A DNA stretch of 56,008 bases, the filler included, from Jimgerdemannia flammicorona (lineage: Eukaryota), in assembly GCA_003990765.1 (NCBI GenBank). It is 3 parts of 3 records of this genome, joined end to end, with 100 filler letters (N's around TTAATTAATTAA, not from the genome) between each part and the next. Parts side by side here need not be neighbours in the genome. Positions count along the whole stretch, not along the records: positions 1 to 18,604 come from RBNJ01002164.1; 2 more parts are not named here. The stretch is one strand, 5' to 3'. The position numbers and the translations under genes were made by a program. Below are positions 1 to 51,884 of this stretch, in pieces. The notes beneath the pieces are model-generated. The model ran no database searches. It was not told the origin of the DNA and saw only the letters and a list, made by a program, of their open reading frames with translations. Numbering within the stretch: the stretch's first letter is position 1; every line of letters starts with the position of its first letter.

Positions 1-2213
1 TTTTTTTTTTTTTTTTTTTTTTTTTTTATAGTCACTTGGACTCCTTTTCTTAATTAATACCCATCTATCCTATATAATGATAGTGGTCCCACCCCCTATC
101 CAATCCCCCTAGGGGGGCTCTCCCTCTCTACCTCTTCTCTATAAAAGACCACTCTGTCAAATACTATCTCCACCCTCCCACCACTCTGCTCATAGATCCA
201 TACCACCAAACTGTGATGTCATCTCCCCTGAGGACCCCAACCCACCCACCATCCAGTCAGCAGATCTCCCAACAGCTCCTCCCACCTTAATACCTTCTCT
301 CACAGCCCCAACTACTGTCTCTCCTCAAATACAAAAAGCCAATGTCCTGCCAGTCCCACCCATACTGCTAACACCCACCCTACAGTGAGCCAACTATCAC
401 CCACCCCACCCATAAGCCAAGATCTTAAGTCCTCCCAGCGACCCCCCACCCCCACCAGCTAATGTCCCACACCCAGTCTATCCCCTATTTCAGCCCAAAA
501 TCCTCCCAGAACCTCACACTCTCCCAGCCAATGCTCTGGCATCTATACATGACCCCCAGCTTGCCCAACATTGTAACACTTCTTATAGTCGAATTGTCCA
601 CCATCTACCAAATGCCCTGTGCAGAAATTCAGCATGACATTTCTTCATAATATTCTCCACCATACCACCCAGAACTTGGAAGGAAGCCACCTCCATACCT
701 CTGCACTCCAAGACCAGATACCTGCCCAGTCCTACTCCTTGCCAATTCCTACTGCCTGCCAGCCACCTGGCCAAAGATCCTGGCCAAGCCCCTACTGACA
801 CTCTACTCCCTCCCCAATATCGAACACAGCCAGTAGAGTACCCCCCAGGAGCAGTCTATCTCAGTGCCACATATTAGGCCCCCACACTGCCTCCCCCTCA
901 TTATCCTGCCAGCGCAGGCCAATTCGGTGTGCTCTATCAGCCACTCCCCACCAAAAGCCCTTGAACCACAGCTTCCGAATTCCATTCAGCCCCACCAAGG
1001 AGAGCAGATCACTAGAGGACCCTTGAGGGGATGTTCGCATCTCCCAAACCTTCTGCAGCAGAGGCACCCAATCTCTGCCCTGCAATTCCACAGCTCTCTT
1101 CAACCACCAGGCTTGCAAGCAGTGCAGCCTCTTAGGGAAATCCACCAGGCTAAGACCTCCCCTGACTACCGGTTTCGCAAGAGTATCCCAACTGACCTGG
1201 GACCTCCTCCCTGCCCAAATCCAATCCCTAGCCACCTTCATCAGCTTCTTCACCACTCACGCTGGAAAGTCGAGGTAATATGCTACATACCACAGCTTTG
1301 GGAATCAATATATATTCAGGATGGACACCTGTCCTGCTAGAGAGATATGGCAGCCTCCCCAACTTCGAAGGGTCTCCCCCCAACTATTCACCCTGTTCTC
1401 CCACCACACTCGTGGCAAGACAGAACTATATATAGAGAGGAAAATGCCCAGATACCACACCACCTCACTAGTAGGGACAATTGTTCCAATGACATCCCCA
1501 CCCACTAGCCTATTCCCTAGCACCATCATCTCACACTTATGCCAGTTGAGCTTTGCCCCTGAGTGAGCCTCATACCATTTCACAGTCTCCTGAAGTACCT
1601 TGACATCTGCTACAGACCCAAGTCCAACCACCATATCATCAGTGAAGGCCCCCACCTTCCACACTATACTATATATAGAGAGCCCTGCTACCTTCTGGCA
1701 AATTCAATCCATCAACAGCTCTAGTGAAAGGGCATAGAGAATAGAAGACAGAGGGTCCCCCTGAGGAACTCCCCTTTCCAAAGAAAATGCCCTCCCACAG
1801 TGACCATTACACATCAGAGCTGCCTGACTACTTTCCAGCAGACTCAACATAGAGGCCCTAAATCTTGAGGGAATACCAATTCGGTCCAATACCTTGCCCA
1901 GCCACACCTACCATATATGGTCATAGGCCTTCTCCTGGTCCAAAAAGACCAACCTTCCATCCAGTCCACAGGCCCGGGCCTCTTCAATGATACCATGAAC
2001 CCATGCAGTCCTATCTCTTATTAGCCTACCCCCAACAAAGCCCCACTGCTCCTCCCCTAGCACCTGTTGGGCAACTTTCTGCAGTCTCACAACAATCACC
2101 TTAGTCACCATCTTCCTGTCCATATCCAGAAGCATGATCAGCCTCCAGTTCTTCTAATCTTCCCTCCTTCCCTTGTCTTTGTACAATAAGGCCACCAGCC
2201 CCAGATCCTGCTC
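1..2213 (-). mobile_element. 5'-truncated L1/Tx1-type LINE (RT and C-terminal part of ORF2, 3' UTR, poly(A) tail), decayed
   Basis: Poly(T) at 1-27. Minus-strand ORFs carry LDQEKAYD, GVPQGDPLS, AFTDD and GGLSLVD motifs. Collinear with the full-length copy at 31446-37307. Confidence 0.93.
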
Positions 2214-3054
2214 TCTATGATCTTGTTGTACCACTGCTCATCTGTGAGCTTGGGTGTCTTGTTCTTGTTTTTGTTCACTGAGTATATAAAGATCTCTGTA
2301 TTCTCTTCATCTCCTTTCTCTATGTCTGGTAGAACTCCTTTGTGGACATTGATAGAGACTCATACCTTTCTTCCTCTATAGTTGATCTGCATCTTCTGGG
2401 CATTGAGGTCAATGATGGCCTTGGCCTTGTGAAGTCATTGATTGCCAATGAGGATGTCATAGTTGGTGGTGTTTGTAACAATCACATCTACTGGGATAGT
2501 AGCTCCTCTTATCTTGATGGAGACTTCTCAGATTTTACCAAGAGGGGTAGCTCATGTACTATCTGCTGTGACATAGACTATCTTGGTAGACTCTTCAATA
2601 TCCCAATCTAGGTAGTCAATTGCCTTCTTGCTCATAAGGTATTCTCCAGCACTGGTATCAATGATGGCATCAAAGATATAGTCTTCAATCTGACATAGGA
2701 TATAGGCTGATGTCTTGTGCTAGTCTTTAGATTCTTCACCTGAGTTTTTGGATTCTTCCTGTACATTATGAGCTTCTACAATCTTGTACTCTTGATTCTT
2801 GGCAGTAATTGTAAGTCCTACTCTCAACTGCTGTCTGAAGGCAGGGACTTCAGCTAGTTGTCCAAAAGTGGCATTGACCTTCTGTTTCTTGAGGTCCTTA
2901 TAGATATCATACTGGTGGATCTTGGTCTTGTGCAGCTTCTGTTTCTTCTTGCTTTTACTTTCTCCTGAGACTGGAGTAGTACCTTCAATAATTTGGCAGG
3001 CAGCTTCATCTAACTCCATGTCTTGATCAATCTCCTCTGGTTGAGTCTTGCTTT

Positions 3055-4230
3055 TGTTTTACGGACTCTATATCCTGCAGATTTTTATTAGAAGGGAACC
3101 TAGACTATATAGGCCAAAACCCTCTCCCACCACCCATCAAGCACTGCCCCCCCATTAATCTAGGCTAGCTATTGTCCAGCAGCTCAACCATATCAGGTGC
3201 AGCAGGGCAAAGTAGCCCATACCTCATTTTGTACACCATGCTCTCCCTACCACCAGGGGAAACCCAGCCATATGCCAATGACTGAAAGCACATACCCGAG
3301 AACCCAATGTATGTACAAGGCTATGCCTGAGCTGAATAGAATAGCCCCTGCCACCCCAAAGAGAATGACAGGCAAAGAAAAAACCCTCATCAAAGCACAA
3401 TATGGTGGGTAGGGCCTGGTTCTCCCAGTTGAGGTGAGTAGAGGACTTACACATAAGGCGGGAGGAGACCCCCCAATACCCCACTACTCAAGCCTATAGA
3501 CCTTGATCATATTGTCATGTCAGCTCCCAGTTCTAGTTGAGTGCAGCCAAGATGTCTGAAATGGGTAGCCTTGGGCCCCCCGACCCCCCCTGATGACCGG
3601 GGCCCAACCCCACGAATCGCCAAAAGAAGCTGAGAGTGATACCTACTACCTAACCACACCACACCAATCAAAAGGCCCCACCGAAGCAGCACCCGCCCCA
3701 GCCCTGACGACTGCCCCCAGCCTGGCACCCTACTGGTTCACTATAATTGTCCTTCCTCCTATCTGTGATGGCCATCTCCCCCTCCATCCTGATATCACCT
3801 GAAAAACAGTCACCTATGCCAGAACCATGCTTGCTGGGAAGCTCGCCAAAGCCAGAGGGCCCCACTACAGGCACCGAGGACCTGCAGGTAACCTATACTG
3901 AGCACTTGATGTCCAAGGTCAGCTGACTCCCTACATAGCCCAAGACATACTGAGACAACTCCTTGTTGGTGATGGCAAAAGGAAAAAGGCGCTGCACCAA
4001 AACAGGTACACCTCAGATGTAGCTGAAGGCACCAGAATCTATAAAAAGTAGAGGAAGCACCGATCTGACACTGATAAAGGGGCAACTCAACACCATTGCC
4101 CTCCTCCCACCATACCCCTACAGGCATAGCAAACCAACCCGAGGTAGAGGGGGTAATATTAGGGGAAAGGGAACTCAGAAGGTTGCCTACCAAACCTTGT
4201 GACCAGTAAGATAGTGGAGAAAGGTGTATG
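3055..4230 (-). mobile_element. Element X copy 1: non-autonomous poly(A) retroposon (~1.15 kb)
   Basis: Homologous to four other copies in the window. Flanked by a 16-bp TSD GGTTGAGTCTTGCTTT (3039-3054 and 4231-4246). Confidence 0.9.
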
Positions 4231-5371
4231 GGTTGAGTCTTGCTTTGAATAGTGACAGCTGGAGTCTTCTTTAGTCTTCTAACTGGCTTGCTGTTGCTCT
4301 TCTTGTCATAGGGCTTGGACCAGGTTCTGGTATCTTTAGTAGTGGAGTAGAATTTGAGCTTCTCATAGTATTCTTCATCATCAGTGTCACCAATCTCCTT
4401 GATGGCTACTATATTGGTTTGTTCTCTGGTTCTGCTAGCATTGCTTAGTTGAGTCTTGTGTCTTGTTTCAGTCATGCAATTCTTTGCATAGTGGCCTTCT
4501 TCTCTATATCTGAAGTATGTAATATTGTATTCTTCTATAGCAGCTGCAAATCTCTGCACTGGTCTCCTGTTGGCACTTCAGACTTCTCTAACAACATCAC
4601 CAAGGTGTGTAGTTACCGCTTAGTGAGTTCTTCCACTAGGTCAGCTTTGGCTGCTTTGAGGATAGGTGGGGTTGATTGTCAGTTTATAACTATAGTGGAT
4701 ATAATACTAGTTGGCTTTGATGGCTCCATCTTGATGCCAGTTATTTTCTCTATTGAGTGTTCAGCAGAGTGTCTGGTAGTTCAATATCTCTATACAAAGA
4801 CCACTTTCTGATCAAGGGTCAGTGCAGCTGGGGTAGACTAGATTGCTAGGGCAATTTCAGAGTGAACTCCTTTGAGGAAGATTGAATCTGCTATTTGTTC
4901 CTTGAGGCAGTTATCATAGCCAGCCAAGACAATCTGATGGCAGATTCAGATATAGAATAAGTTGGGATCTTCACTAAGTCTCTGGCAGATAGTATTGAGT
5001 TGATCCTTGAGAGCTTGCTTGATCTCTTCAGTATAGTATGTTGTTCTGAGAAAGGCCTTCATGTTGGCAAGTTTGGCTGCACCATTATTAGCAATAGTGG
5101 CTGCATTGAACTTATCTCTGGCAGGTCCTCTGAGGCTAACTGGTAAAAGGGCCAATTGTGCATCCACACCAAGGGCTCGTACAGCAGTGAATTGTTCAAA
5201 GTCTTCAATAAAGGTCAGGATTGACTCTTCAGTAGTATATCCATAGAATGTGGGGGGATATATTTTTATCTTGTCTTGATTTCTTGCAGGGGTGACTCTT
5301 GTAGTTAGAGTAGTTGTTGTGGGAGTTGTTCATTTTTCAGCTTGAAAGTAAGGGATTTATCTTGAATCACT

Positions 5372-5386
5372 AGCCAATGGGCACCA
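5372..5386 (-). promoter_or_regulatory. Primer binding site of Gypsy family Z (TGGTGCCCATTGGCT)
   Basis: TGG-starting motif 3 nt after the LTR's CA end. Nearly identical motif at ~38301-38315. Primer tRNA not identified. Confidence 0.75.
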
Positions 5387-5389
5387 AGT

Positions 5390-6920
5390 TGTCACATAGT
5401 AATTGCTGAGTCCTTCAAATATGCCAGATTCTCTTCAAGGTGTATCTCTTAGACTAACTCAAGTTTGTTATAAGTAAGTTCTTATTGAAGTGCCTTCCTA
5501 AGGTCTTATAGTCCTCAAACTTCTTATCTTTAACTATCTTATTATCTCTTAGATTACTTGCAAGGAAGTGTGTATATTGCACTGAGAAGACTGACTTTAT
5601 TTCAGAGGAAATAAGAGAGATATTTATATAAAATATAATTCAATGGTTGCTAAGATATAAAGCTAAATATAAATTCTAATAACTAAAATAAAATACCAGG
5701 ATAAGAAAAACTGGGTTGGTACTGATGATTGTATAGGTTCAGGATGCTGGTATAATTTGATGTCATATCAGAATGCCAGTGCTGGCATTATTCAGTATTA
5801 CCAAGAGACTTAGAGCAGAATATTCAGAACTATGAGAACTTCATCATCAGAGGTCAGAATGTCTTTAAAGGAGATGAGGTCTGTGAATTCATCATAAGAT
5901 CATGCATTTCACATACTTTGTGTGCTTTGTTACATATCTCACATACTTCATATACTTTGTCATGTGTCTTGTATATGTTGTGCAGAATGATGTCATCACC
6001 GATGATGTCATCATATTTGGTAGTGGGAAGGAGGTCTAGAGCTCTCCAGTTTATAAGGTTCTCTACTACAAAATAGGGAACAAATGTGGGATCTTGGAAA
6101 GGTCTAACCTGGATGCTTGGGCCTTGGAATACTGAGATCAATCCTTGCAGGAATTGGTCTGAGTTGTTCTGAAAGATGGAGTACCAGAAGTCTTCTACTT
6201 CATCACTATTGAGAGTGATAGTAGACTGGGCTTCTATAGCCACCCTGGCTTCTAGTGTATTGATATGGCAGGATGACAGGTCTCTGAAGTCTGAGACTCT
6301 AATATACTTCAAGTTAGGGATTGATCATGGTGCATGCCTGAAGATCTGATGGATCTTCTTAGCTATCCTTACCTTACATATATCCATGGGAGTAGCATCT
6401 TATAGTTCTTGAGGGCTGGCCTGTGGGAACTCCTGGTAGAGAAGGGTTTCTATTTTGTATTCCTATCACATTTGGAGATATTCAGTAGTAATGGTAATTC
6501 TTGTTTCCATTTTGCAATGGTAGAGGATATAGTGATAAGGATCACCAGTATCCAGGTTGACACTAGGAGTCCTTCTTGAGTGAGTCCTCATAGCTTTTCT
6601 GATGTCTTGAAATATCCTCTCTTTGACTAAAATACCTTAGTAGTTCCTTGATCTTGAGGTTTGGTGAGCAGCAGACATTTCATTTGTGGTAAGTCTTTAA
6701 GCTATTTTAGGATTGGTAGGTCTTATTGGTTGCTACTACTGCAGTTCCTTGATCCTTCTTTTATATTCCTCAGAATGCTTATACTATAGTCACAATAACT
6801 CATAGTTGGTCATCATTGCTTATCTCATATGCTGTATGATCTTCTTGTACTCTGATCTGGTGGCTTACAAGGAAAGACTATCTCCTGTACTAATGTTATC
6901 ATTCTGGGGTCACCATTACA
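5390..6920 (-). repeat. 5' LTR of Gypsy family Z (1531 bp) containing a U3 ORF
   Basis: Minus strand runs TGTAA...TGACA and is followed by a PBS and gag. TATA-like TATAAATA at ~5621-5628 and AATAAA at ~5596-5601. Second copy at 38319-39851. Confidence 0.88.
5854..6678 (-). pseudogene. LTR(U3)-encoded hypothetical protein, family Z (~275 codons, premature stops)
   Basis: ATG at 6678 is in frame with track ORF 5854-6312. TATAAAAG lies ~80 nt upstream. Internal stops are TAA/TGA/TAG, explicable by single C>T changes. Homologous reading in copy 2 (~38832-39610). Confidence 0.72.
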
Positions 6921-7119
6921 ATATATATTATTAAATTACTTATATTATGACTAGTATATAATAAGCAGTACCAGCAAGCTCAATATATATATAGTAAGTA
7001 TATATTGATAAGTAGTGCATGTCTGACTAAGCTTTTATTAATATATCATCAATGAGAATTAATTACTTACATTATAGCTAGTATATATAGTAAGCTCAAT
7101 ATATATATAGTAAGTATAT

Positions 7120-10100
7120 ATAGTTAATATTTACATTATATAAACTTTGAAACATACTGTTAAATTATTTATTGAAAAAAGTTACTAAAGATATAATAAT
7201 AAATAAGTGAGTTGAAATATATACTAAGTTAGAGAGATCTAGAGCCTTTAACTAGAAATATGTCAGAAGAGGGTATAGACTAAAGATGGGGACTTTGAGA
7301 GGTTCTGGAGGTCAGGATAAGCCAAGCAGTAGTAGCTAGTCTAGTATAAAAGCAGGAGAGCAGAGGGGGCTGAGTTTGGCAGACAAGGTGAAGCTGGGAG
7401 GATGACCTATTGAAGCTGGTGAGAGATGAGAGAGCAGTAAGAGAAAGTTGAAGGAAGTGAGGGCTGGAGGGTCAGTATCTCAAATGACAGATAGAAGGAC
7501 TGGTAGAGCAGTAGCTAGGGGAAGTAGTGGAACTGCTAATCAGAGAGTAACTGGGAATCTGAAAAAAAATCCAGATGTGACTGTTGATGGTGGGACTGGA
7601 TCACAGAGGCTGAGGAGGACTGGAGATCTGGCTGATGGTGTAATGGAGCTAATAGTAGCTCTATTGCTCAAGAAATTGATTTTAGAGTTTGTAATCATAT
7701 TATACTTCAGAGGATTGACAGTTATGGCAAAGATAATTTTGGGTCTGATTTTGAAACAAATGGCTAGAGCTACTTCAGTGAAGTTCCTGAAAGGATTGGA
7801 GAGAGTTAAGATGGGCTTTGAGGATACTAGACTCCTGAAGGAGGTAATAAAGATAGGGTTGACTGTAGGAGAGATAGTGATTTTTATAGTATACTATTTG
7901 AGATAGAACTCAAAGGTGGTTTAGCTCCTGGTGAAAGAAGTACCCATAGTGATGGCAGTTGAGATAAGGAGAAGAGTTGAGGAGATTATGACTGAGTATG
8001 ATGAGGTAGTGGATATTGGGTTTTAGGTCTGGAAGGGGACTTCTTTTAGGATAGAGAATGTGGATATTTATCTCAGACTGACAGAGAAGAAGACTACTGG
8101 AAACCTATGAGATTGACCATTAGTGATGATGTGGGGAGTCTTTATCTGCAAGATAACAAGAGTAAAGGAGAGTATAAAAGAGAAAGAGGATCTGGTGGAG
8201 GCACTGAAGAAGCTCAGCAGAATGGTAGAGCAGTGGGTCAAGATATTACAGTACTATATAGAATTGACATGCTTGGAGATAGTGGATGGAAAGCATGTTT
8301 GGGTGGACAAGAGTATGTGGGAGAGGACTCAGAGGTATAAGAGACAGAAGGAGCTGTTGATAAGTCTGAAGGAGAAGAAGAAGGAGAAGACAAGCTTAGA
8401 AGAGAAGACTGGGGGAGCTAAGAAAAGCATCTGAGTAGGGGTAGAGGTTGAGAGGGTACCAAAGTATATGAGTAGAAGCTAGGAGAAGAGAGATTAGACT
8501 CTCTATGATGATAGCATACTAGAGGTATAGGAGGAGATAAGAATATAAGAAGAAAGGATCAGGGCATCCATCTAATGGCTGATAAGAATATGGAGATAGT
8601 GGGGACTCACTATGTTAGATTTAGAGTATCTGAGATAGTAAGTGGGGGGTAGGTGGTTGATGTTGGAGAGGAGGAGCTGGTGGATGTCTCTGAGGAGGAA
8701 TGGAATATGTCTGCAAGTGCTGGGACAGATACTGTGATGCTTGAGGCTGGCCAACTGGTAACTCCTGAGGGCAAGAAGATTGAAGACTTGTAGTGGATAT
8801 ACTATGCAATGAACAACTTGGTGGCAGAGAAATTGGACAATATGGACCTATGAATTATCAGTGAGAAGTACTGGATAGAAATTATATAGAGAGAGAGGAT
8901 TGTGGAGGCCCTGGCAAAGAAAGTGCTAGCAGTATATCTAGATAAGGAGGGCTATAAGGTGGATATTGTAAGGAAAGCAGAGATTATAGTAGCAGCTAGA
9001 GAGTGTATAGGCTTTTGATGAGAATAGAGATATAGATTGGAAATTTGGTAAGGAGTTTGCTTAGAGTACCAGGAGAAGTTAGAGTTGAAGAATGATACAG
9101 CATTGGATGAGCTATTGGTTGGACTAAAAACCAAGCAGGTTGAGGAGGCTGAGGCTACTGCTGAGTATAGATTGAATCTGGCTGAAGAGAGAGTAGATAT
9201 AGAGTTGTAAAGAGGATGTATCTATATCAATATTATTCTCTATGAACAGTACAACTAATATTTTCCCATTGAATGTAAATGGCCTAAGGGGTTCTGGAAG
9301 ATATCATAACATTTTTACTTAGTTGAAGAGATTAGAGGCTGATCTCTTTCTGCTGTAGGTTGTACAATATGAAGAGGACTTTGAGCAATAGGAGTGGATG
9401 AGAGAATGGGGTGAGAATGTAGTCTGAAATAGCAAGGTTGAAATTCTGGTGCAGAGAGAGTGAGAAGAAATATATAACAGCAGAATCTGGGGAGATTATA
9501 AGAATAGTGTCAACTAGGGTAAGAGTTAATTATGGTTGGAACTTGCTACTACTTAGCAGTTAAGAGAGAGTATGTAGAGTGGATTAATAGTCTTTTGGAT
9601 AGTAAAGTGATTGTAGAGACAGAAGTAGAGGTGCTGGGGAGGGACTTTAATATAATTTGCTTGGTACAGTTGAACAGAACTGATAGAAGGAGAAATATAT
9701 AGAGTAAGAGTGATAGCCTGGAGAGTTGAAAGGAGGTGGAGTGGCTTAGTTCTCTAGTGGATACCAGTTAAGCAATGTGGAGAGATAAGAGGGTCTATAC
9801 TCACTGAGTAGGGAGCCTGGGAACTAAAATTGACTAGATGCTGATAGCTGATTACTGGGGTCTGGATGTCTAGAAGTCTCTGGAGGTTGAGTGGTATCTA
9901 TGGTCAGACTATTGAGACTTGTTAGGGTATGATCAGTTTGGGGGAAGTGGGGATGAGCCTGGACATTGGTATCTCAATTTCTCTTTATTAGCTGAGAAGA
10001 GATTGTAGGATACTTGGACTATGGACATTAGGCAGAAAGTGGAGGATTGAGTCCAGGAGAGGGCCCCAGTGAGTATTTATTGAGTAAGGTTAAAGGAGGC

Positions 10101-12850
10101 TACTAAGGTTTATTGGAGTAAGACTAGAAGAGTAGCTAGAAGACAAAGGAGGAGAAGGGTGACCTGGGCCTCTATTAAATTGGCCTGACTACAGGAGAAT
10201 TGGACAGATCTTTTGGACTTGGATGGGGTTGAGGACTGGAGGTTGAGACAAGCAAAGCTAGAGGTTGCTGAGTTGCAGATATAGGTGTGAGGAATAGCTG
10301 TATAACTATGATAGTAGGGACTGAAGAAAGGGAAGAGGCCCTCTAAGTATCTCTTAAGAATTCTTCAGACAAGGTAAGTGAGGCAGAGGTAGGAAGGGGT
10401 GCTGGATTCTGATGGACTACTGGTGCATGGCTCACAAGATATTTTGGGCTCACTGAAGAAAAGATAGAGTAGTTTGTGGAGTGAGGAGAGTGGGACTGAT
10501 GCTACTACTATTGAATATGCTTTGGAGGACTGGCACTCACTATAAGTAGATGAGATGAGCAGATTGGTATTGCTGATTCAAGAGGAAGAGATTTATTAAG
10601 TTCTTACTGTAACTATACTAGATACTGTGTCAGAAGAGAATGGACTACTCTAGGACTTTTAGAAGAAGATAGTGGAAATCTCTGGAGTGCTGGAAGAGAT
10701 GATGATACTGTGTGACTTAGTATTATAGTCAGAGAAGTGGGTGGGGAAATAGGATCTGAGACTGGTGGTACTGTTGTTTAAGGATAAGGATAGGAAGAGA
10801 ACTGGAAGAACTGGTGACCTATTATGCTTCTAGATATAGATGGAAAATTGGTCACTAAGGTAGTTGTTGCAAGACTGTAGAAGGTAGTCCAGCAAGTCTT
10901 GGGGGAGAAGCAATGAGGCTTTATAGGAGACTAGCTCATTAGGGATAGTACAGCTTGGGTCTATGGTTTGAAGGAGCTCAAACATATAGACTGAATGAAA
11001 GATTGGTCTTTCTGGATTAGGAGAAGGTTTATAACCATATCAGATATATCTAATTGATAAAGGTACTAGATAGGATTGGAGTCCTTCAGCAGTTCTGGGT
11101 GTCTATAATCAGTCTACTAGAAGGGAGTAGAGCTGTACTTATGTGCAATGACCACTAGGGGGTAGTATTCTCTCTGGGTAGAGGTATTCTCCATATTTTA
11201 TATACTCTGTTCTTAGAGCTATTGATGGATAGGATTTAGAGAAAGATAATAAGACTGTCAGTATTTAGAATTGCCTGGAAGATTGGGGCCTTTGCAGATA
11301 ATATAGTAGTTGGTCTAGACTTTATTGCAAATGTTAGGGTATTTTAAGAAATAGTAGAGTGGTATAAGGTGTACTCTAGAGCTAAACTCAACTGATATAA
11401 GTATAAAACAATGGTGTTGGGCAATGGTCTGGTGGAAGGGGATGTCATTGGAACAATTGTTCTAGCTGGAGATACTGTATAGTACTTGTACATCTATCTT
11501 TTAGTCTATAGGTTAGTTCTATCTCAAACTTAGTGAGAGCAGAGAGTGGCTATTTGGAGAGAGGCTCTGTGGAGCTAGGGTGGCTACTACATCTCTTTAA
11601 CAGATCATGTTTCAATCTTGAATGTCTACTGGCTGTCAGAGCTGTGATATTTAGTATATTATTTAGACTTTTTGGCCTAGGTAGTGAAGAGGCTATTGAA
11701 GCTAGTCAAGAATTAGATCTGGGCTAGTAGATGGAGTCAAATTAGCTGGGAAATTCTATCATTACCAGTAGATATAGGAGGACTTAGGCTGGTTGACTTC
11801 TCAAAAAGACTATATTGTCTATGAGCTTGGTGGCTGAAGAGAGTAGTAGAACTGAGGGGTAATAGCTAGGTCTCTCTGATGAAAAAGGTCTGAAAGATGA
11901 GGTTCTTACCAAGAGGCTCTACAGGGAATCTTCTGTCTCTAGTTGGGCTTCAGAACAGTAGACATATGTGATTTAAGGGCTTCTGGTAGAGAGTAGTTAA
12001 TGGGGTACACCATATTGATCTTTACTAGTAGAAAGTAGAGAGAGAGATACTGTGGAGCCCAGTAATGTGGAGATAAGATCAAGTGCTGTTGGAGGGTACT
12101 TCACTAATTGACTTTAATATTGAAGATGGAGTTGAGTGCCAGAGAGGGTTAGGATAGAATATATGGCCTAGGGGCTAACAGATAGCAAGAATTAGAGAGA
12201 GGTGGAACTGGAATAGAGTCTGGGTCTGAAGTGCTGAGGTCTGACAATGACTGTTACTTAAGTTCTGAGTAGTTTGGTGATACTTGCTGAGGCAGAATAT
12301 TATGCTCAACTTTTATATAGGTTATTTTATAGAGAGTGGCCAATTTAATTGTAAGGAGTGTTATAATATTGTACAGGAAGGATAATATATACAGATACTG
12401 AAATATTGACTGGAGGAGTGTGAAGTACTCAGAGACTTTTGGTTAGCAGTTAGAGATAGGTTAGATGTTGTGAGGGGGGGGAAATGGGGAGAGGGACTGA
12501 TGAGAGGACTTGAGAGATAGATTAGTGGGGGGGGTTAGAACTGAGTGACTCACTATTGGTTAGGTTATAGCTATTTGAGTAGAGTTGACAAGACATTGGC
12601 TATATGTTTTTGAAGAAGAGAGATGAGTGGGTTTAGAGGAGTGGCTGGTGAGATAGAAAGGATTGATGGAGAAGATTTGTGAATAGAGTAGAGAGAGAGT
12701 AATAGTAGTTAATGGTAAGGTGACTTTTAAGTATAAGAGAGTGAGGGAGAGCCCCTCTAGGGGGATTGGGTAGTGAGATGGGGTACTGTAATTATATTAA
12801 TAGACTAGTAATAAATGGCAAAGTCCATAAGACTATATAAAAAAAAAAAA
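7120..12850 (+). mobile_element. Near full-length L1/Tx1-type LINE, heavily decayed
   Basis: ORF1 remnant (GNLKKNPDVTVDG...). ORF2 starts ATGAACAGTACAAC at 9242 with APE and RT motifs. AATAAA and poly(A) at ~12838-12850. 5' boundary approximate. Confidence 0.92.
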
Positions 12851-13894
12851 TAATAAGTATATAGTAAGCTCAGTATATGTATGGTGAGCATATATTGATA
12901 AATAGTACATATCTGGCCAAACTTGCTTGCATCTACTTATCAATATAAAAGCACTCCTCTCATCTTTTTTTCTTTTCCATTCTTATACTTACTTATACTT
13001 ATACAATCATTACTATATTACTATATTATACTTATACTTATTACTCATACTCATGCTCATTGCTTGTGCTCATACTCATGCTCATTACTCACTACTATAA
13101 TGTGTAAGCCAAAATGTTAAAATCCACTTAATTCATCTATCTATCCATACTTACTATCTAATAATACAATATCTAATTAAGCTCAAGATATGCCCTCTAC
13201 AATCTACTATATCAAACTTTTTGGGAAACATAAAGTCAAACCCAAAGATATATATTCTGATCAAGAGAGAATAATTAAGCTTAAGCTTCTTAGATATATA
13301 ATTATTATTAATATGTAACCAAATAAAAAGAAACAAGAAGATATTCTCAAGAAGATATCTAAATATATAAATTTTAACTTAGAAGTGATAATTGTAAAAT
13401 ACAGCAAAGTATATATTGAATTACTACTATATATTTACCTCTTTCTTATTTTATCTAATTATCTTTCATTTATATATTGTAGTTTGATCAAGCAATATGA
13501 GGAAATAGGTTTTTGAAGCTATCAAATCCAATTTTCTCTCCAAATTCACTTCTATTCTTTTGAACATTTTTAACCTCAACAAGGATCATCAATTTAGACA
13601 ATTAATACTTGACTCTGACAAAATATTTATAGTCTATGAAAAATGTAATCCTAAGTTTGGTCTTTTGATAGATCCAATTAATAGAATATTTAACCTCAAT
13701 ACTACTCAATAAGTAAAGTTCAAGAAGTATATAGTTAATCAGATCTGTGTAAGCCCTACTTTTAAAGAAATAATTTGAATTATCTTTATGCACTATAACT
13801 ATAGATTGTATTATAGATTAAAGATGCTACAAAGTTTAGCTCAAATATATTAACTAAAGATATTAGATAGAAGAATAATAGCTTTTGCTATTAC

Positions 13895-16319: not shown

Positions 16320-16730
16320 GTTTGATGAACCAAATTCTTTGGATCCTTAGATGGTAGGTAGTAGTTCAGGGACTTCCTTGACTGTCAGAGTTGACTTGAT
16401 TTTTTCAAATAGTATCTGGGCAATACAGAATCCAATGGGAATCTTAAAGGGTATCCAACTATGGTTTTGGATCAGAACAATGATTTTTCCTATATAATCT
16501 TTATCAATGACTTCTCCTTCTACTGAGAGTCCTTTCAATGCTAGGCTGCTGCAACAACATATTCTTCCAATATATCCTTCAGGAATTTGGATACTAATTC
16601 CTGTATAGACTTGCTTGACTTCTTGGTTGGAAACTGTAGCTTCTTTGGCTGCATATAGGTCATATCTAGCTGTTTTTTGACTTCCTTTGGTTGGGGCCTT
16701 GGCAGTTTGCCTTAACTTGACAAAGTCTAG
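16320..16730 (-). pseudogene. dut: Retrotransposon-encoded trimeric-type dUTPase domain
   Basis: FVKL..TAKAPTKGS..TARYDLYAA...TGISIQIPEGYIGRI...SSLALKGLSVEGEVIDKDYIGKI...IAQILFEKI...GSKEFGSS matches the five conserved dUTPase motifs in decayed form. Confidence 0.92.
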
Positions 16731-18604
16731 TATTCTGGTGGTCAGGTTGTTGAGGTAGTGCAGAGTGATAACAGTTGCTTGTGTTGCTGTTCAGGGTTTT
16801 CAGTTAGGGCAGGCACTGGCCATATGTCCTGTCTTTTGGCAATAGAAGTATACTCTGCTTCTTTGAAGTTCATTCCTTTCTCCTTCGGTTAGTTTCTTGA
16901 AGGTACTTGGCTGGGTGAGTTCATGATTTCTGAGTGTCCACAAAGTGGATGTTGAGGGAGCTTGGGATGCTTCATGCTTGGGTTCTTCTTTCTTGGTCCA
17001 AGTCTTTTCCTTGTTGTTGAATTATCTTTGGGGCAGAATTAGTCCAGCTGTTAGGATTTGCTTAACCATAGTCTTGATTCTTACTAGGCACTATTGTTGG
17101 TGATCACAACCAACTGGGTGGCCTTGTTCTCAGATTTTTCTAGTAAGCCATTCAGGTAGTGCATCAAATAAATGGTCTGCTCTTGTACTATTTTGTACTT
17201 CATCATTGACAATATATCCTAGGCCAACAGTATTCAGGAGTGACTCGAGTTTTATATAGAAGGTTTCAAATTCTTCTTTACTATATATATCAAATTTGAG
17301 GTTGCAGAGTTTTACTCAAGATTCAGTAATCATGGTTTCACTGCGGTATTGAGCAATTATGAGTTGTTTGAGTCTAGGGGCTGCAGGATGGGCTCTATAT
17401 CCTGGGGTATTATTTGCTATATTCTGAACAACTACTGCAGATTGGGTATCCCATGTAAGGGGTTTTTCAGGAAGGGTTCACCACCATTCTTCAGTGGGTC
17501 CTCAGAAAAATATAACAACTCAGTGGACATAGGCTATAGTAGTAGCAAAGAGTTGTTCCAGAGTGTGGTCTTAATTATTTGTTAGAATGCAGTCAGCAAC
17601 TTGCTCATTGGTCCATTGATTGGCTTCAAAGTTAGTGTCAACTACACTAATGAAGCTTTGGACTTCTTGTGCAGTACCATTGAAGGTAGGTAGGCTCAGA
17701 TTTTTGATAGGTCAGGTCTGTTCAGCTAAGGCAGTAATAGTTGCTACCATTATTGCTACTTGGGCTATGAGGTCTAGAATCTGTTGGTTTGCCATATTGT
17801 TTGCTGGAGGCAGTTGGACTACTAGTAGTGGTATTACTGGTACTACTTGAGGTACTGGTGCAGAGTGTGATGGGGTTCTTTGGGTCTGTGTAAGTTGCTG
17901 GAGTAGTAGTTGTGAGTCTGGAGTAAGGGTTTAATAGATAGCTATCTGTTGCTATATTGGTGTATTTTGTCCTGATAGAGGGGTATCTCTTTCAGTGGTG
18001 TATCTGGGATTGAGTTCACTGAGATACTCCTCCTCTTCTTCAGTTTGGTCTCTCTGTAATTGGATTTGCTCAGTATCAAAGTAGACAGAATCAGTTGTAT
18101 ATCTGATTTCAGATAGACTTAATTCAAAGTCAAGTTCTAGTTTGGTGTTGGTTTCAGGTTCAGGTAGGGCTGTAGCAGGACCTGCTTCTAGTTCGGGGTC
18201 AGGTAGTTAATGAAGGGTTTCTCTTGCTTCTTCTTTAAGAATATGACAGGCCTTGCTGTTCTGGAATTGGTAGTATAATGTGGTCTTGGTTCTGGTATGG
18301 TGAAAGTCAGTAGAGTTGAGCCACTTAGCTATAGAGGCTTGGACTTCATGAGGAACTAAGGCTAGAAAGACTGCTGCTGGTTGTCCTAGGTCACTCAGAT
18401 TTGTAGAGCTGACAAAACTCTTGTTGAGAAGGGTAAAGAAGACTTCTATAAGACCCTCTTCATCTTGACTTGCTGGGTGTAGAGCAAGGAGTTTGATGAA
18501 TAGGGTTTTGCCTATTTGCTAATTTAACTAGAGTATTTCTTTCTTTGAATGAAGTTTGTCCCACTTGTTGCAGGTGTGGAGGTCAAATTGTTCTTTTTTT
18601 TTTT

Positions 18605-18704
18605 NNNNNNNNNNNNNNNNNNNNNNNNNNNNNNNNNNNNNNNNNNNNTTAATTAATTAANNNNNNNNNNNNNNNNNNNNNNNNNNNNNNNNNNNNNNNN
18701 NNNN
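18605..18704. other. Scaffold gap (N44-TTAATTAATTAA-N44 linker)
   Basis: Run of N containing a six-frame stop linker; identical structure at 37308-37407. Confidence 0.97.
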
Positions 18705-21700
18705 TTTATAGTCTCTTGGACTCCTGCTTTTATTAATATATTTGTCTATCTAATATATATTACACTGAGCCCACTTCTATCCAATCCCCCTAGGGACTCC
18801 TCTCTCCCCCACACTCTCTCTATTAAAGACCACTAGGTCATTAATCATCTCTACCTGCCCACTACTCTATTCATAAATTTCTTTTACCAGATAGCAGTGA
18901 TGCCCACTCTGGGGACCCTATCCAACCCACCACCCTGTTAGCAAATCTCCCACCAATCCCTCTCATCTCAATAACCTCTCCTACAAATCCAGCTGTTATC
19001 TCTCCTCAAAAACAAAGAGCCAATGTCCAGCCAGCCCTACCTATACAGCTAAAACCCACCCTACAGTGAGCTATTCATTGCCCACACCTCCCACCAACCT
19101 AGTTCTCAAATCTTTCCAGTGATCTCTCTCCCCATCTGGTCTCCTCTTCATATGCAGCCAGTCCCCTATTGCTATCCAAAAATCCCCCAGAATCTCACAC
19201 TCTCCCAGCCAATGTCCTGGAGTCTGCACAAATCTCCAACTTATCTTATATTGTAGTACTCCTCACATTCCAGTAGTCCACCATCTGCCAGATATCCAGT
19301 ACAGAAATTCAACATGATATTCCTCTATAGCATCTATCACCATACTATCCAGAACTTGGAAGGAAGCAACTTTTGCACTTCAGCACTCTATGCCCAGACT
19401 TCTGCCCAATCCCACTCCTCACCAACTCTCACTGCTTACCAACTTCTAGACCAAAGATCCTGACCAAGTCCCTGCTGATACTCTACTCCATCCTCAATAT
19501 CAAACTCAATAAGTAGAGTACCCCCCAAAAGCAGTTTATTCCATCTCTATATAGCTGGTTCCCACAGCATCTCCTCTTTATTGCTATGTTAGCACAAGTC
19601 TATGTGATGTGCTCCATCTACTACCTCCCACCAGAAGCCTTTATATCTTAGCTGATGACTTCCACCCAGGCCCACCTGGGATAGCAAATCCCCCAAGAAC
19701 CCTCTTGGGGAGAATATCATCTCCCACACCTTCTGTATCAGCAGCACTCATTTCCCTCCCCTCAGTTCCACAGCCCACTTCAACCACCAAGCTCTCAGAC
19801 AGTACAGCCTCTTAGGAAAATCCATCCGTTCTAGCCCCTCTCAAACTACTAGCATTGAAAGAGTATCCCAACTGATCTGGGACTGCCTTCCAGCCCAAAT
19901 CCAATCCCTAGTCAGTTTCATCAGTCTCTTCACCACCCAAGCAGAGAAGTCTAAGTGATAGGCTATATATCACAACTTAGAGAACCAGTAGACATTCAGA
20001 ATTAATACCCAGTCTGCCAAAGAGATATATTGACCTCCTCAGCCTCTAAGAGCCTCCCCCCAGATGGCCACCCTTCTCTCCTACCACACCTATGACAAGA
20101 CAGATCCATATACTGAAAGAAAGATACCAGATATCTCACTACTTCTCCTATAGAGACAATTGTTCCAATGACATACCCTCCCACTAACCCATTTCTCAAC
20201 ACTATTGTCTCACACTTATGCTAGTTGAGTTTTGCTCTAGAGTATGTCTCATACCATTCTACTGTCTCCTTAAGGGCCTCAACATCTGCCACTGATCCAA
20301 GTCCAACTACCATATCATCTGCAAAGGCCCCCACCTTCTACACCACACTATAAATAGAGAGCCCTGTCACCTTTTGTCAAATTCTACATATCCATCAAAG
20401 GTTCTAGTAAAAGAGTATATAGAATAGAAGACAGTGGATCCTGCTGAGGAACTCCTCTCTCCAAGGGAAATGCCAGACCTCAGTGACCATTATACATCAG
20501 TGCTACTCTACTGCCCTCCAACAGATTCAATATAGAAGCTCAAAATATTGGGAGAACTCCTATTATGTCCAGCACCTTGCCCAACCACACTCACCAGACC
20601 CAGTCATAGGCCTTCTCCTAGTCCAAAAAGACCAGTCTCCCATCCAATCTACTAGCCTATGCCCCTTCAATGATACCATAAACCCAGGCCATCTCATCTC
20701 TGATATGTAAGTCTACCTCCAACAAAACTCCACTGCTTCTCACCCAATACCTGTTGGGCAACCTTCTGTAATTTTGCTATAATCATCTTAATAACCATCT
20801 TCCTGTCTATATCTAGAAGCATAATTGGTCTCCAGTTCTTCCAATTCTCCCTTCTCCCCTTATCCTTATACAACAGGGCCACCAGCCCTAGATCCTGCTC
20901 TCCCACCCACTGGCTATTCAAAAGAACAATGTCACAGAGGGCTGCCATCTCTCTTAATACTCCCAGGACTCTCACTATCTTCTTCCAAAAGTCCCAAGAT
21001 AGTCCATCCTCTCCTGGTACTATTATAAGCTTAGTTGCTACAAAGACTCTCTGGATCTTTTCCTCTTGGACTGGTAGGACCAAATCCCCCAGGCCCTCCA
21101 CTTGTAGTGACTCTCAAGTCTCCAGAGCATCTCCAATTGCCTCAGCATCAGCACTCCCTTCCTTCTCACTCTACAGACCCCTCCACCACTCCTTCAGCAA
21201 CCCCAAGATCTGTTGTATGCTATAAACTATTTCCCCCTCTGTATCAAGGACTCCATCCCATTGATGTTATACCATTCTAGCCTAGAGGAGCCTTGACAAA
21301 TACCTAGTGGGCCTCTCCCCCTCCTCAAGCCCCTACTATCTCAACCAGGCTGCTATTCCTTTCATCTACATCTCCTCTTTCTCTCTTAACACCTATTGCA
21401 ACTCCACTACTTCCTGCTTTGCCCACACTAACCTCCAATCATCCACCTCTCCAGAATTTATCAAATTAGCTCATTCCATCTGCAATCTGACCAATCTATG
21501 GGAAGCACACCTCACTCTCTTTCTTCTCTACCACCCAGCATCCCTACTAGCTCCTCCCCAGTAAACCCTCACAACCTCTTTCAACTTCATCTACTAGACA
21601 TCTACTGGCAAACCCTCATATATCCAGCTAGCAATCTTCCCCTGAATGTCCTCTGCCCAAGAGTCCTACAATACCTTCTCAGTCAGCAGAAAGGAGTTAA

Positions 21701-31437: not shown

Positions 31438-31526
31438 AACTAAGGCACCTTTCTCTGGTAACATTCAGGTTACACAATCTTTGGCAACACTTTCGACACA
31501 GTTTCTGGAGACAAGCTACTAGTTTC

Positions 31527-33557
31527 ATGGCAACCAACAAGCATCCTGAGGTGCGTACTGGGCAGGGTGGCCCTGGAGCATTCAAATGGCAGCAAGTGGG
31601 GAGAGGCCCTGGCTTGGGGGGAAGCATGAGGGGCCTGCTGGTGGGAGGACGTGGTGGAGGAGGGAGCAGAGCTAGAGATCAAGGAACCGGTAGGGCGAGC
31701 TTTGTGGAGAAGATGAAGGGGAGTCAGCAGGGGGCCGGACTGGAGAGCTGGCTGAGGGGGGGGAAGGTGCTAGTGAGGGCTTCTAGGCAGCAACCTCATG
31801 GGGGTGCCTCTCTGGAGGGCCATAGGGGTGGAGCTGGGGGGGTAGCAGCTGGGGCGGGGACTGCTGATGGAGGTGTGATGGGCAATCTGGAAAAAAATCT
31901 AGATGGGACTGCTGATGGTGAGCTGAGCAGTGAGAAGGGCATGAGGCCCGGGGACCTAGCAGATGGTGTAACGGGACTGGCAGTGGTGCCATTACTCAAG
32001 AAGGTGATCTCGGAATTTGCAGTCATGATGTGTTTCCGAGGCTTAGCAGTGACGACGAAAATGGTGCTGGGGCTCATCACTAAGCAGGTGGTAGGAGCTG
32101 CATCTGTGAAGTTCTTGAAAGGACTGGAGGGAGTGGAGGTTGGTTTTGAGGAGGTGGCGCCACTGGAGGAGGCACTGAAGGTTGGATTGGTGGTTGGGGA
32201 GGTGTGTGTTCTGATGGCACGTTGCCTGAAGTGGGATCCCAGGGTGGTCCAGCTGCTGGTGAAAGGAGTGCCGACAGTGACGGCAATGGAGACAAGAAAG
32301 AGAGTTGAGGATTTCATGGTGGAGTATGGAGAGGTGGTGGATATCAGATTCAGGATCTGGGAAGGGACCTCGCTCAGGACGGGCGACATGGATGTGAGGA
32401 TTCGGCTGGCTGGGAAGGAAGCTACTGGGAAGGCAAGGGACTGGCCTTCAGCGATAGTCTGGGGAGTGATCCTGTGCAAGGTGACAAGGGTGAAGGGTAG
32501 TGAGGAGGAGGAGGAGGATCTATTGGAAGTGCTAGAAGAGCTGAGTGGTGCTGTAGAGAGGTGAGCGAAGGCTTGGGAGGCTTTTGTGAAGGCGACGCAT
32601 TTGGAGATAGTGGATGAAAAGTGGATTCGAGTGACTAAGGAGCAGTGGGAAAGGGCTCAAGGGCATAAGAGACAGAAGAAGCTGCTGGCCAAGCTGGATA
32701 ATGGGCCACTGGGGGATGCGAGCAAGATGAAGGGTGCAGGGGGAGCCAAAGTGAGTGTCTGGACTGGCGAGGGGGAGGGGAAGGACAAGAAAGAGGCAGG
32801 GGAGGATAAGGCAAAGCATAGTAAGGACCCATATGCTGATGGTACGCTGGAGGTTTGGGAGGAGGACTGGGAGGGCTCCCCTACCCCTACCCCTCTTATC
32901 AGACGTGGCCTGGCTTCCCGAAACAGGGTGGTGGAAGATGTGCCAATGCAAGGGGCCCAGAGGGTGCAATTCAGAGTTCCAGAGGTGGCATATGGGGGAC
33001 AGGTGGTGGCGGCTGGCGAGGAGGAACTAGTGGATGTCCTGGAGGTATGGGATGAGTCTGCAAGCACTGGAGCTGACACCACAATGTTGGATGGAGGGAG
33101 GCCGGCAACTCCAGGAGAGAAAGAGGTGGGGAACTTACTTTGAATGTGCTGGATGATGAACAATCTGGTGGCGGAAGAGCTGGGGGAGGTGGACTTGTGA
33201 GTGATGAGTGATGAGCATTGGGCAGGGATACTGTAGGGGGATGGAGTAATGAAGGCACTGAAGGCGGAAATTCTTGCGGTGTACCTGGAGGAGGAAGGGT
33301 ATGAGGTGGATAAGGAAAGGGAGGTGGAGATGGCGGTCGTTGCTGGAGAGAGGGCTGAATACTGCTGGAACAAGCATCATGGACTGCAACTCTAGCAGGA
33401 GGCTTGCATAGAATACCGAGAGGAGTTCGAGGAGAAGGCCGATGGAGAGATGAATGAACTGCTGACTGGATTGGAGGCTCAGAGGGCAGAAGAGGAGGAG
33501 GTGGCTGCAGAACATAATCTGGACACAGTGCAGGTGGAGATGAGCATGGAGCAGTAG
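31527..33557 (+). pseudogene. LINE ORF1 (RRM-like nucleic-acid chaperone, ~676 codons, 5 premature stops)
   Basis: One reading frame from ATG 31527 to TAG 33555. RRM-like VQLLVKGVP...EYGEVVDI...RTGDMDVRI. Terminal stop position is conserved in the copies at 9208 and 22251. Confidence 0.85.
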
Positions 33558-33587
33558 AGATTGATTGACAGCATAACATCTTCTAAT

Positions 33588-37244: not shown

Positions 37245-37307
37245 TGGGTAGTGATGTTGTATACTTATTCATAGACTGGTAATAAAGGCAGAGTCCAAGT
37301 GACTATA

Positions 37308-37407
37308 NNNNNNNNNNNNNNNNNNNNNNNNNNNNNNNNNNNNNNNNNNNNTTAATTAATTAANNNNNNNNNNNNNNNNNNNNNNNNNNNNNNNNNNNNN
37401 NNNNNNN
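37308..37407. other. Scaffold gap (N44-TTAATTAATTAA-N44 linker)
   Basis: Run of N containing an artificial linker. Confidence 0.97.
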
Positions 37408-38195: not shown

Positions 38196-38200
38196 AGACC

Positions 38201-39851
38201 TGTCTTGAATTCTTACAAGAGTGACTCTTGTAGTCAAGGTAGTTATTGTGGTGATTGTTTGTTTTTCAGCTTGAAAGTGAGGGATTTGTCTTGAATCACC
38301 AGCCAATAGGCACCAAGTTGTTATGTAGTGATCACTGAGTCCTTCAAATATGCCAGATTCTCTTCAAGGTATATCTCTTAGACTAACTCAAGTTTGTTTT
38401 AAGCAAGTTCTTATTGGAGTACCTTTCCAAGGTCTTATAGTCCTCAAACTCCTTATCTTTAAACTGTCTTGTTATCTCTTAGATTGCTTGCAAGGAAGTG
38501 TATATATTGTATTGAGAGGAACTGACTTTATTTCAGTAGAAATAAGAGGGATATTTATACAAAATATAATTCAATGGTTGCTAAGATATGAAGCTAAATA
38601 TAAATTCCAATAACTAAAATAAAATACTAGGATAGGAAAAACTGCTAAGTTCCAGGGTTGGCACTGTTGGTTGTATAGGTTCAGAATACTAGTATAATTG
38701 CAGTAGTACAGAAAAATAGTACTGGAATAATTCAGTGTCACATCAGAATACCAGTATTGGTATAATTCAGTATCACTAAAGAACTTTAGAGTAGAATGTT
38801 CAAGACTATAGGAGCTTCATCCTCATCAGAGGTCAGGATGTCTTCAAAGGAGATGAGGTCTATAAATTCATCATAATTACATAGGTCACATATTTCATAT
38901 ATATCATACAGGATGACATCATCACCAATGACATCATCACATTTGGCAGTGATGAGAGCAAGGAGGTCTGGGGCTCTCCATTCTATGAGGTTCTCTTCTA
39001 CAAAATAGAGGACAAATGTGGGGTCTTAGAGAGGTCTAACCTAGATACTTGGGTCTTTGAATACTGAGATCAATCCTTACAGGAATTGGTCTGGGTTGTC
39101 CTGGAGGTTGGGATACCAGAAGTCTACTACTTCATTACTATTGAGGATGATAGTAGGCTGGGCTTCTGTAGCCACCCTGGCTTCTAGTGCATTAATACAG
39201 TAGGCTGATAGATCTCTAAAGTCTGAGACTCTGATATACTCCAAGTTGGGGATCGATTATGGTACATGTCTGAAGATCTGATGGATCTTCTTAGCTGTTC
39301 TTGTTTCATATATATTCATGGGAGTGGCATCTTGTAGCTCTTGAGTACTGGCCTATGGGAACTCCTGATAGAGGAGGTTTCTTATTTCATACTCCTGCTA
39401 TATTTAGAGGCATTTGGTAGCAATAGTGATCCTTGTTTCCATTTTATGGTAGTAGAGGATAAAATGATAAGGGTCATCAGTACCCAGGTTAACACTAGGA
39501 GTCCTTCTTGAGCAGGTCCTCATAGCTCTTCTGATGTCTTAGAACATTCTTTCTTTGACTGAGGTACCTTAGTGGTTCCTTGACCTTAAGGTTTGGTAAG
39601 TAGCAGGCATTTCATTTATAGTAAGTCTTTGAGCTATTTTGGGATTAGTGGGTCTTGTTGGTTGCTGCTACTGTGGTACTTAATCCTTCTTTTATATTCC
39701 TCAAGATATCTATACTGTGGTCACAATGACTCACAGTTGGTCATTATTGCTCATCTTGGATGCCATATAATCTTCTTGTACTCTGATCTGGTGGCTTGTA
39801 AGGAAAGACTGTCTCCTATACTGATGTCATCATTCTGGGATCACTGTTACA
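38201..39851 (-). mobile_element. Gypsy family Z copy 2: 5' LTR (38319-39851) with U3 ORF, PBS and start of gag
   Basis: Collinear with 5272-6920. TGTAAC start at 39851. PBS TGGTGCCTATTGGCT. Confidence 0.9.

Positions 39852-51845: not shown

Positions 51846-51884
<39 letters not shown>

Follow-up and report, generated by a model that had tools for sequence, protein, structure and literature searches.

A decayed gypsy-like element of Jimgerdemannia flammicorona probably carries a protein-coding gene within its long terminal repeat

We analysed a stretch of 56,008 nucleotides from the genome of Jimgerdemannia flammicorona (GCA_003990765.1; three parts joined end to end, hereafter the window), and in particular a segment at positions 5390–6920. 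An initial annotation had described this segment as the 5′ long terminal repeat (LTR) of a gypsy element with a complete protein-coding gene inside U3, the 3′-derived unique part of the LTR. Our results make it quite probable that the LTR of a dead gypsy-like element does carry a real, selected gene in sense orientation, and that this gene is dead in the window. This statement concerns the identity of the gene and not its role.

Two decayed copies of an LTR-borne frame

The segment occurs twice in the window, with 84.8% identity when gapped columns are left out (1362 matches as against 221 transitions and 23 transversions). All features at 5390–6920 are on the minus strand, and both the LTR and its open reading frame (ORF) read from 6920 to 5390. 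The features of the two copies are as follows.

5390..6920, minus strand: LTR copy A (5′ LTR), 1531 bp with TG...CA ends; similarity to copy B begins at about 6920–6931
38319..39851, minus strand: LTR copy B (5′ LTR), 1533 bp, followed by the primer-binding-site-like TGGTGCCTATTGG (38315→38303), a 118-bp leader, and a break at 38200
5810..6678, minus strand: decayed LTR-borne ORF of copy A, with ATG at 6678–6676, five in-frame stops, and then a frameshift
38786..39610, minus strand: decayed LTR-borne ORF of copy B, 275 codons in one frame with nine internal stops and no frameshift
6758..6765, minus strand: upstream TATAAAAG, 87 nt upstream of the ATG; copy B has this TATAAA at 39696
5596..5628, minus strand: second TATAAA (5628→5623), followed by the sole AATAAA within the LTR (5601→5596)

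Read in this direction, the 1531-bp LTR with TG...CA ends was borne out. Copy A starts with TGTAATGG and ends with GTGACA, and the terminal TG...CA forms part of a short inverted repeat in both copies (TGTAATGG...ATGTGACA in A and TGTAACAG...ACATAACA in B). The copies share their 5′ terminus, and their outer flanks are unrelated. Copy B (39851→38319) also has the layout that had been claimed for it, with TATAAA, ATG, frame, second TATAAA, and AATAAA all kept.

The ORF lies wholly within the LTR, 242 nt from its start and 420 nt from its end, and runs in sense orientation for approximately 275–290 codons from the ATG at 6678 (A) or 39610 (B). The position, the preceding TATA, and the coding origin of the roughly 275-codon frame that had been read from ATG 6678 all stand, but the description "complete" does not, given the internal stops in copy A (codons 14, 71, 72, 93, and 118) and in copy B. 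Relative to copy B, copy A also contains 53 extra nucleotides around 5977–5897 that shift the frame. Because of this insertion the true C-terminus of copy A lies outside the frame first read, and the tail ...LKTF followed by a stop is not the end of the protein. The conserved end is found in another frame at 5881–5810, as DLISFKDIL (5881→5855), LNILL (5827→5813), and a stop codon (5812–5810). Copy B has kept its C-terminus as DLISFEDIL...LNILL and a stop.

Every internal stop in the two copies is a change of CAA or CAG to TAA or TAG, or of TGG to TGA, TAG, or TAA, as judged against glutamine or tryptophan in intact relatives (see below), one or the other of which occupies every stop position of the window copies. 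The earlier remark that only transition-type stops were present, made for parts of the frame, is thus true for all internal stops of both copies. Most of the transitions that separate A from B fall in CpA/TpG context, and the ratio of observed to expected CpG is 0.02 in both copies. When this ratio was computed by bin along the window, bins with transposons gave values of about 0, and those with host genes at 48–52 kb gave 0.9–1.1. Both window copies are pseudogenes by way of C>T and G>A hypermutation at CpA and CpG, and copy A also by frameshift.

Despite this decay, the frame has retained the marks of a coding sequence. The stretch 6678→5854 contains 6 stops in frame, compared to 16.5 ± 3.9 in 5000 shuffled sequences, of which a fraction of 0.0012 had six stops or fewer. 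Codon differences between A and B are synonymous and non-synonymous in a ratio of 39:62 in the ORF frame, as opposed to 21:77 and 11:84 in the shifted frames. This coding bias is seen in the ORF frame only and argues against an artefact of gene prediction.

Relatives of the encoded protein

Five proteins related to the frame were found among 112 candidates with a translation in which stops were read as X (E values from 1e-94 to 1e-30), and a profile search that covered all of 1.84 billion representatives yielded five clusters at E ≤ 0.001. The combined set holds nine relatives (P0003–P0011), which are uninterrupted, 138–342 amino acids long, and 28–80% identical to P0004 (P0003–P0008, 62–80%; P0009, 47%; P0010, 41%; P0011, 28%). 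P0004, P0009, and P0010 have their start codon aligned with ATG 6678. The C-terminal motifs (D/N)LI(S/T)F and LN(F/I)(L/T)(L/I) recur as far as P0010, so that start, core motifs, and C-terminal motifs are all kept down to 41% identity; P0011 keeps the core alone. Open frames over such divergence, together with conserved tryptophan, glycine, proline, and phenylalanine columns, point to purifying selection in active lineages. The proposal that the LTR frame is a real protein-coding gene is upheld by these nine uninterrupted relatives, with their common start position and a range that extends down to 28% identity. Judged from these alignments, the frame descends from a real protein-coding gene that belongs to an orphan family whose reading frame selection has maintained in active relatives.

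The searches of viral contigs (86 pattern matches) and of genome contigs (132 pattern matches) contained no relatives. One metagenome locus (L001) with 30% identity over 78 residues was rejected as spurious, since there is no ORF at the match and the neighboring ORFs are unrelated.

Could the frame instead be a fragment captured from a host gene, with no role in the element, or a product of gene prediction? LTRs do acquire foreign sequence, and the protein contains no recognizable domain. However, none of the five clusters among the 1.84 billion representatives is longer than 342 residues or contains another domain, and for this reason we found no host parent gene. The conservation of start, core, and C-terminal motifs to 41% identity, and of the core alone at 28%, speaks against this explanation, and the coding bias described above against an artefact. 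In addition, the relatives are all found on short contigs typical of repeats. We give this explanation very little credence.

The segment as a terminal repeat

The elements to which copies A and B belong are both incomplete. The remaining features of element A are the following.

5374..5386, minus strand: primer-binding-site-like sequence of copy A, TGGTGCCCATTGG (5386→5374), TGG-type, 3 nt past the LTR end
5272..5389, minus strand: 118-bp leader directly after the LTR, common to both copies
4284..5329, minus strand: decayed gag, frame 5329→4284, collinear with residues 7–335 of the polyprotein relative P0013; CCHC relic at 4517→4476
2267..2917, minus strand: aspartic protease region with AIIDTSAG (D-T-S-G motif) at 2668→2639; 46% identity to P0013 and 35% to the second polyprotein relative, P0014

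In reverse transcription, everything between the 5′ end of an element and its primer-binding site (PBS) is U3-R-U5, where R is the part repeated at both ends of the RNA and U5 the 5′-derived unique part. The claim that a PBS and gag follow directly after the segment, which makes it a 5′ LTR, agrees with what we found, namely a PBS-like site 3 nt beyond the end, a gag frame, and a protease. The PBS-like TGGTGCCTATTGG just past the LTR end of copy B is the counterpart of TGGTGCCCATTGG in copy A.

Further evidence comes from contigs of four sequencing runs that we placed on the window at ≥80% likeness (1565, 29, 30, and 164 contigs). All nine runs contain at most 12% of the sampled words, and the four placed runs represent related copies and not the window locus itself. 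The contig numbers indicate that the LTR family is repeated elsewhere. In a related X9 contig (record 27, 5325–5512) the LTR end is joined to PBS and gag. In one X2 contig (record 11, 39 loose letters) and two X7 contigs (255-letter loose ends), the LTR end is joined to unrelated DNA at 5389/5390 and 5406. The same end thus adjoins PBS and gag in some related copies and unrelated DNA in others, as expected for 3′ or solo LTRs. At positions of disagreement, the letter in the window is mostly A or T and that in the contigs G or C (125 of the 206 differences listed for X1), in keeping with decay of the window copy. Three contigs of X7, a run taken as RNA by guess only, stop near 6708–6715, and summed contig depth in the four runs is greater over parts of the LTR than over gag; as contigs are no guide to the ranking of gene parts or to the ends of transcripts, neither observation was used as evidence.

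Two other observations on these contigs are recorded here. A single X7 contig (depth 2.4), from another organism, joins 6636 to 5577 by way of 36 other letters; as a lead, it would correspond to an LTR variant that has lost nearly all of the gene together with the second TATAAA and the AATAAA. Contigs of X2 and X9 that match gag, leader, and PBS-like site continue for about 10 nt into the LTR (to 5399) and then change to a different, CpG-containing sequence. This divergence suggests either a related internal region paired with another type of LTR, or an unmutated and strongly diverged LTR.

On the basis of the TG...CA ends, the PBS-like site immediately beyond them, the 5′ terminus common to two copies with different flanks, and the contig joins at 5390, the assignment of 5390–6920 as the 5′ LTR of a gag-protease element is supported. 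The segment might still not be a terminal repeat throughout, in which case the frame would be an ordinary upstream ORF, either because the gene sits in a 5′ leader outside the repeat or because the repeat covers no more than a short terminal part. Two facts are in keeping with this alternative: neither a 3′ nor a solo LTR is present in the window, and the window contains no tRNA gene to which the putative PBS could be matched. However, only U3-R-U5 can precede the PBS in a retrotransposed copy, and the alternative would also have to account for the TG...CA ends and for the joining of the 5390 end both to unrelated DNA and to PBS/gag in other runs. The contigs bearing the nine protein relatives, all of which measure ≤1.6 kb, fit an LTR-sized repeat unit as well, although this is suggestive only. 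We regard a segment that is not wholly terminal repeat as quite improbable.

Lineage of the element

Both a gag CCHC knuckle and a retroviral-type aspartic protease are present in element A. The knuckle, YFRYREEGHYAKNC at 4517→4476, is degenerate, and the region is collinear with P0013; the protease matches the Pfam family gag-asp_proteas with an E value of 0.0046, short of the Pfam cut-off. P0013 has the order CCHC-protease-dUTPase (zf-CCHC, RVP_2) and is collinear with window positions 5254→4769, 4604→4284, and 2917→2267. P0014, which is 35% identical in the protease region, has the order protease-dUTPase-reverse transcriptase-RNase H (RT_RNaseH). The absence of an integrase between protease and reverse transcriptase in P0014 excludes the copia order. 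No integrase was seen, and the reverse transcriptase and integrase of the element itself would lie outside the window. We therefore describe the element as Ty3/gypsy-like, an assignment that is judged by its nearest polyprotein relatives rather than by the element itself. Some fungal gypsy elements, PosPlaTy3-5 among them, have likewise been described with a dUTPase between protease and reverse transcriptase (PMC2864245).

The window contains a second trace of this domain in an open frame of 147 amino acids at 16323–16790 on the minus strand (dUTPase domain, Pfam E 2e-26), which is 34% identical to the dUTPase of P0013 and P0014. A Pfam search of its neighbors gave no match. This frame is probably a relic of a second dUTPase-bearing LTR element.

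Signals and expression

The presence of a second TATA and an AATAAA near the 3′ end of the LTR was confirmed at 5628 and 5601, and both signals are kept in copy B (38559 and 38532). They fall within the block 5714–5428, which is the best-conserved part of the LTR with 92–95% identity between A and B, compared to 82–85% elsewhere.

From these signals we propose a model in which each LTR would be a self-contained expression unit. The upstream TATAAAAG (6765) would start an mRNA of about 1.1 kb, which would be translated from ATG 6678 and end at the single AATAAA (5601). The second TATAAA (5628), located 27 nt before this AATAAA, would serve as the promoter for genomic RNA. With this arrangement the gene would lie in U3, and R would be very short. 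We lean cautiously towards this placement of the gene in U3.

The same LTR-borne gene might instead be located in a very long R of about 1.15 kb, with TATAAAAG at 6765 as the promoter and TATATAA...AATAAA at 5630–5596 as the poly(A) signal. In that case the genomic RNA would have the gene as its first cistron, and short transcripts confined to the LTR, with their ends in the 5′ LTR, would express it as well. With one promoter and one poly(A) signal, this interpretation of the conserved signals is the most parsimonious. In fungal poly(A) signals an efficiency element is followed by a positioning element, and the TATATA-type element and AATAAA of the LTR resemble such a pair. On the other hand, an R longer than 1 kb would be unusual, and efficient polyadenylation in the 5′ LTR would end most genomic RNA prematurely. 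Moreover, the strong conservation of the block around the second TATAAA is what one would expect for a core promoter with R and U5. For these reasons we consider a long R possible, but rather unlikely.

The protein and its possible role

The proteins of this family are acidic, with net charges from −8 to −27 and 11–22 aspartate or glutamate residues among the last 70. They contain no conserved hydrophobic 19-mer, and the maximal hydropathy over 19 residues is ≤1.05 in eight of the nine relatives. P0004 has a basic N-terminus (10 arginine or lysine residues among the first 45), as do close members. AlphaFold2 models show helices at about residues 18–185 and an unstructured tail. From these features the product is predicted to be a soluble and strongly acidic protein, helical for the most part in its conserved N-terminal two-thirds and ending in a disordered acidic tail that holds the two conserved short motifs.

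Two candidate identities were rejected. A match to ATG5_HBR (Pfam E 0.088, two of nine scanned rows) was taken as noise. Alignment of the family with the gag-protease-dUTPase protein P0013 by hhalign gave a probability of 0.15%, which argues that the protein is not a diverged gag.

Acidic activation domains and the accessory genes of retroviruses provide analogies for what such a protein may do. The acidic tail studded with hydrophobic residues and the location in an LTR led us to consider a trans-acting regulator, possibly a nuclear protein that would raise expression of its own element or counter silencing by the host. This role is suggested by architecture only and received no direct support from the fold and family searches; we hold it as a tentative and rather doubtful idea.

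Several observations weigh against the picture of a selected regulatory gene within an LTR. A search of the window returned copy B as the sole other copy of the segment, with no third copy and no 3′ or solo LTR, and no element bounded by an LTR on each side was seen, A and B being 5′ LTRs of truncated elements. The relatives are gene calls that list open copies only, so that the intactness of the close ones is in part an effect of selection of the data, and all nine were compared as proteins. The TATAAA-AATAAA pair could be a polyadenylation element of the fungal type rather than a promoter. An arginine-rich N-terminus as an RNA-binding or nuclear signal of the family had to be dismissed because it is absent from P0009–P0011. 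Structure prediction and profile searches, which the initial annotation had suggested, were carried out and gave no confident fold and no family or structure match: AlphaFold2 reached a mean predicted confidence (pLDDT) of 33.9 with 6 rows and 49.2 with 9 rows; Pfam returned no families for the window frame and P0004; NCBIfam had no match for the family; a profile search of the PDB gave no matches; and Foldseek against the PDB found none at E ≤ 0.001 (best E 0.71). The ESM Atlas gave no lead either, and its own model has a pLDDT of 0.35.

Comparison with known systems

Complex retroviruses characteristically have genes inside their LTRs. The sag gene of mouse mammary tumor virus (MMTV) encodes a superantigen and is located in U3 of a betaretroviral LTR. 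The window frame resembles sag in that it is a whole sense frame of similar length in a long LTR (>1.3 kb), upstream of a core promoter and a poly(A) signal. Since it lies wholly inside the LTR, it would be copied with each LTR, as is the case for sag. The expression from a TATA in U3 that we propose for the window LTR would also be the MMTV layout. Betaretroviruses carry a dUTPase next to the protease, and the polyprotein relatives of the window element likewise have a dUTPase beside the protease. Unlike Sag, the window protein has no Pfam match and no conserved transmembrane-like segment. The host is a fungus-like genome and not a vertebrate, the element is a retrotransposon in which no env was seen, and placement of the gene in U3 is inferred here.

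In HIV and SIV, nef is a 3′ ORF that begins upstream of the LTR and overlaps U3. As with nef, the window frame would be an accessory gene in an LTR, and its product has acidic and leucine-type short motifs in a flexible region. In contrast to nef, which overlaps the LTR only in part, the window frame is entirely contained in it. The resemblance in motifs is weak, with a clathrin-box-like LISFE in three of eight scanned relatives. Pfam, PDB profile search, and Foldseek detected no homology to Sag or Nef.

Additional genes are also described for LTR retrotransposons. The fungal Ty3/gypsy element Boty/BcGypsy1 carries brtn, an extra gene of unknown function (PMC8365987), and a figure legend in PMC2864245 marks an "add. 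ORF" for fungal chromoviruses. The title of Zhao et al. 2011, a paper cited in PMC8365987, describes brtn as antisense; the LTR gene of the window, in contrast, is in sense orientation. The available portions of PMC8365987 and PMC2864245 place no extra ORF inside an LTR. Accessory frames added to gag-pol are described for LTR retrotransposons of bdelloid rotifers (PMC5408684) and, as an env-like ORF, for Athila (PMC2864245). As described in these sources, such ORFs differ from the window frame in being internal, either preceding gag or following pol ahead of the 3′ LTR, and we found no sequence relation. A search of the open-access literature, which is no proof of absence, turned up papers on MMTV and unrelated uses of the term "LTR ORF", but no report of a fungal retrotransposon with a conserved and selected gene contained entirely in its LTR.

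Other features of the window

The two LTR elements are truncated by insertions of long interspersed nuclear elements (LINEs) or by the edge of the window. Element A is cut past the protease at 2215 by a LINE, the poly(A) tail of which forms the first bases of the window, and the break of element B at 38200 adjoins the 5′ part of another LINE. LINE copies are located at 1–2215 (minus strand), about 7200–12900 (plus), 18705–20902 (minus), 31440–37249 (plus), and 37408–38200 (minus). They are 64–74% identical to each other, and the fullest copy contains APE endonuclease and reverse transcriptase families. Their sense strands have a very strong GC skew of about ±0.5, and two of these copies interrupt the two LTR elements. 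At junctions of LINE copies (18605–18704 and 37308–37407) there are two pairs of 44 N, with 12 bases within each pair, which we read as masked or unresolved sequence.

The gag of element A is split at 3052–4234 by a retroposon of 1.18 kb with poly(A), flanked by a 16-bp target duplication, GGTTGAGTCTTGCTTT. This retroposon occurs in four copies (3052–4234, 29285–30467, 51873–53047, and, inverted, 41107–42280). The others are 84–86% identical to the copy in gag, and each copy has a sense-strand poly(A) end and flanking target duplications. It is a SINE-like (short interspersed nuclear element) or LINE-mobilized element.

Normal CpG content is confined to the part of the window that holds a host gene, found in pieces at 48881–51046 on the plus strand, with VTC and DUF202 domains. 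The gene is likely split by introns and resembles a vacuolar transporter chaperone or polyphosphate polymerase. Together with the CpG pattern along the window, it suggests that the host is a fungus. Just upstream, in an AT-rich stretch, lies an inverted repeat (47720–47920 and 47981–48181) with arms of 201 nt that are 86% complementary and 60 nt apart.

Implications

Extra genes in fungal gypsy elements are already known. Here it is the LTR itself that probably carries a selected orphan gene, of which two dead copies are in hand. Because the family is an orphan, with five clusters among 1.84 billion representatives, any function found for it would be new. A far-reaching but unlikely interpretation is that a fungal gypsy-like lineage independently evolved a complex LTR in the style of retroviruses, in which each LTR, solo LTRs included, would be an autonomous promoter-gene-poly(A) unit that makes a trans-acting, orphan acidic protein. 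Such a protein might, for example, switch on LTRs or blunt host defences such as C>T hypermutation, methylation, or RNA interference. If true, this would be the first sag- or nef-like U3 gene outside retroviruses and a source of dispersed stand-alone genes. If the layout holds, gene dose would double with each insertion, the gene would outlive its element in solo LTRs, and the family would offer a testable case of retroelements gaining regulatory or counter-defence proteins.

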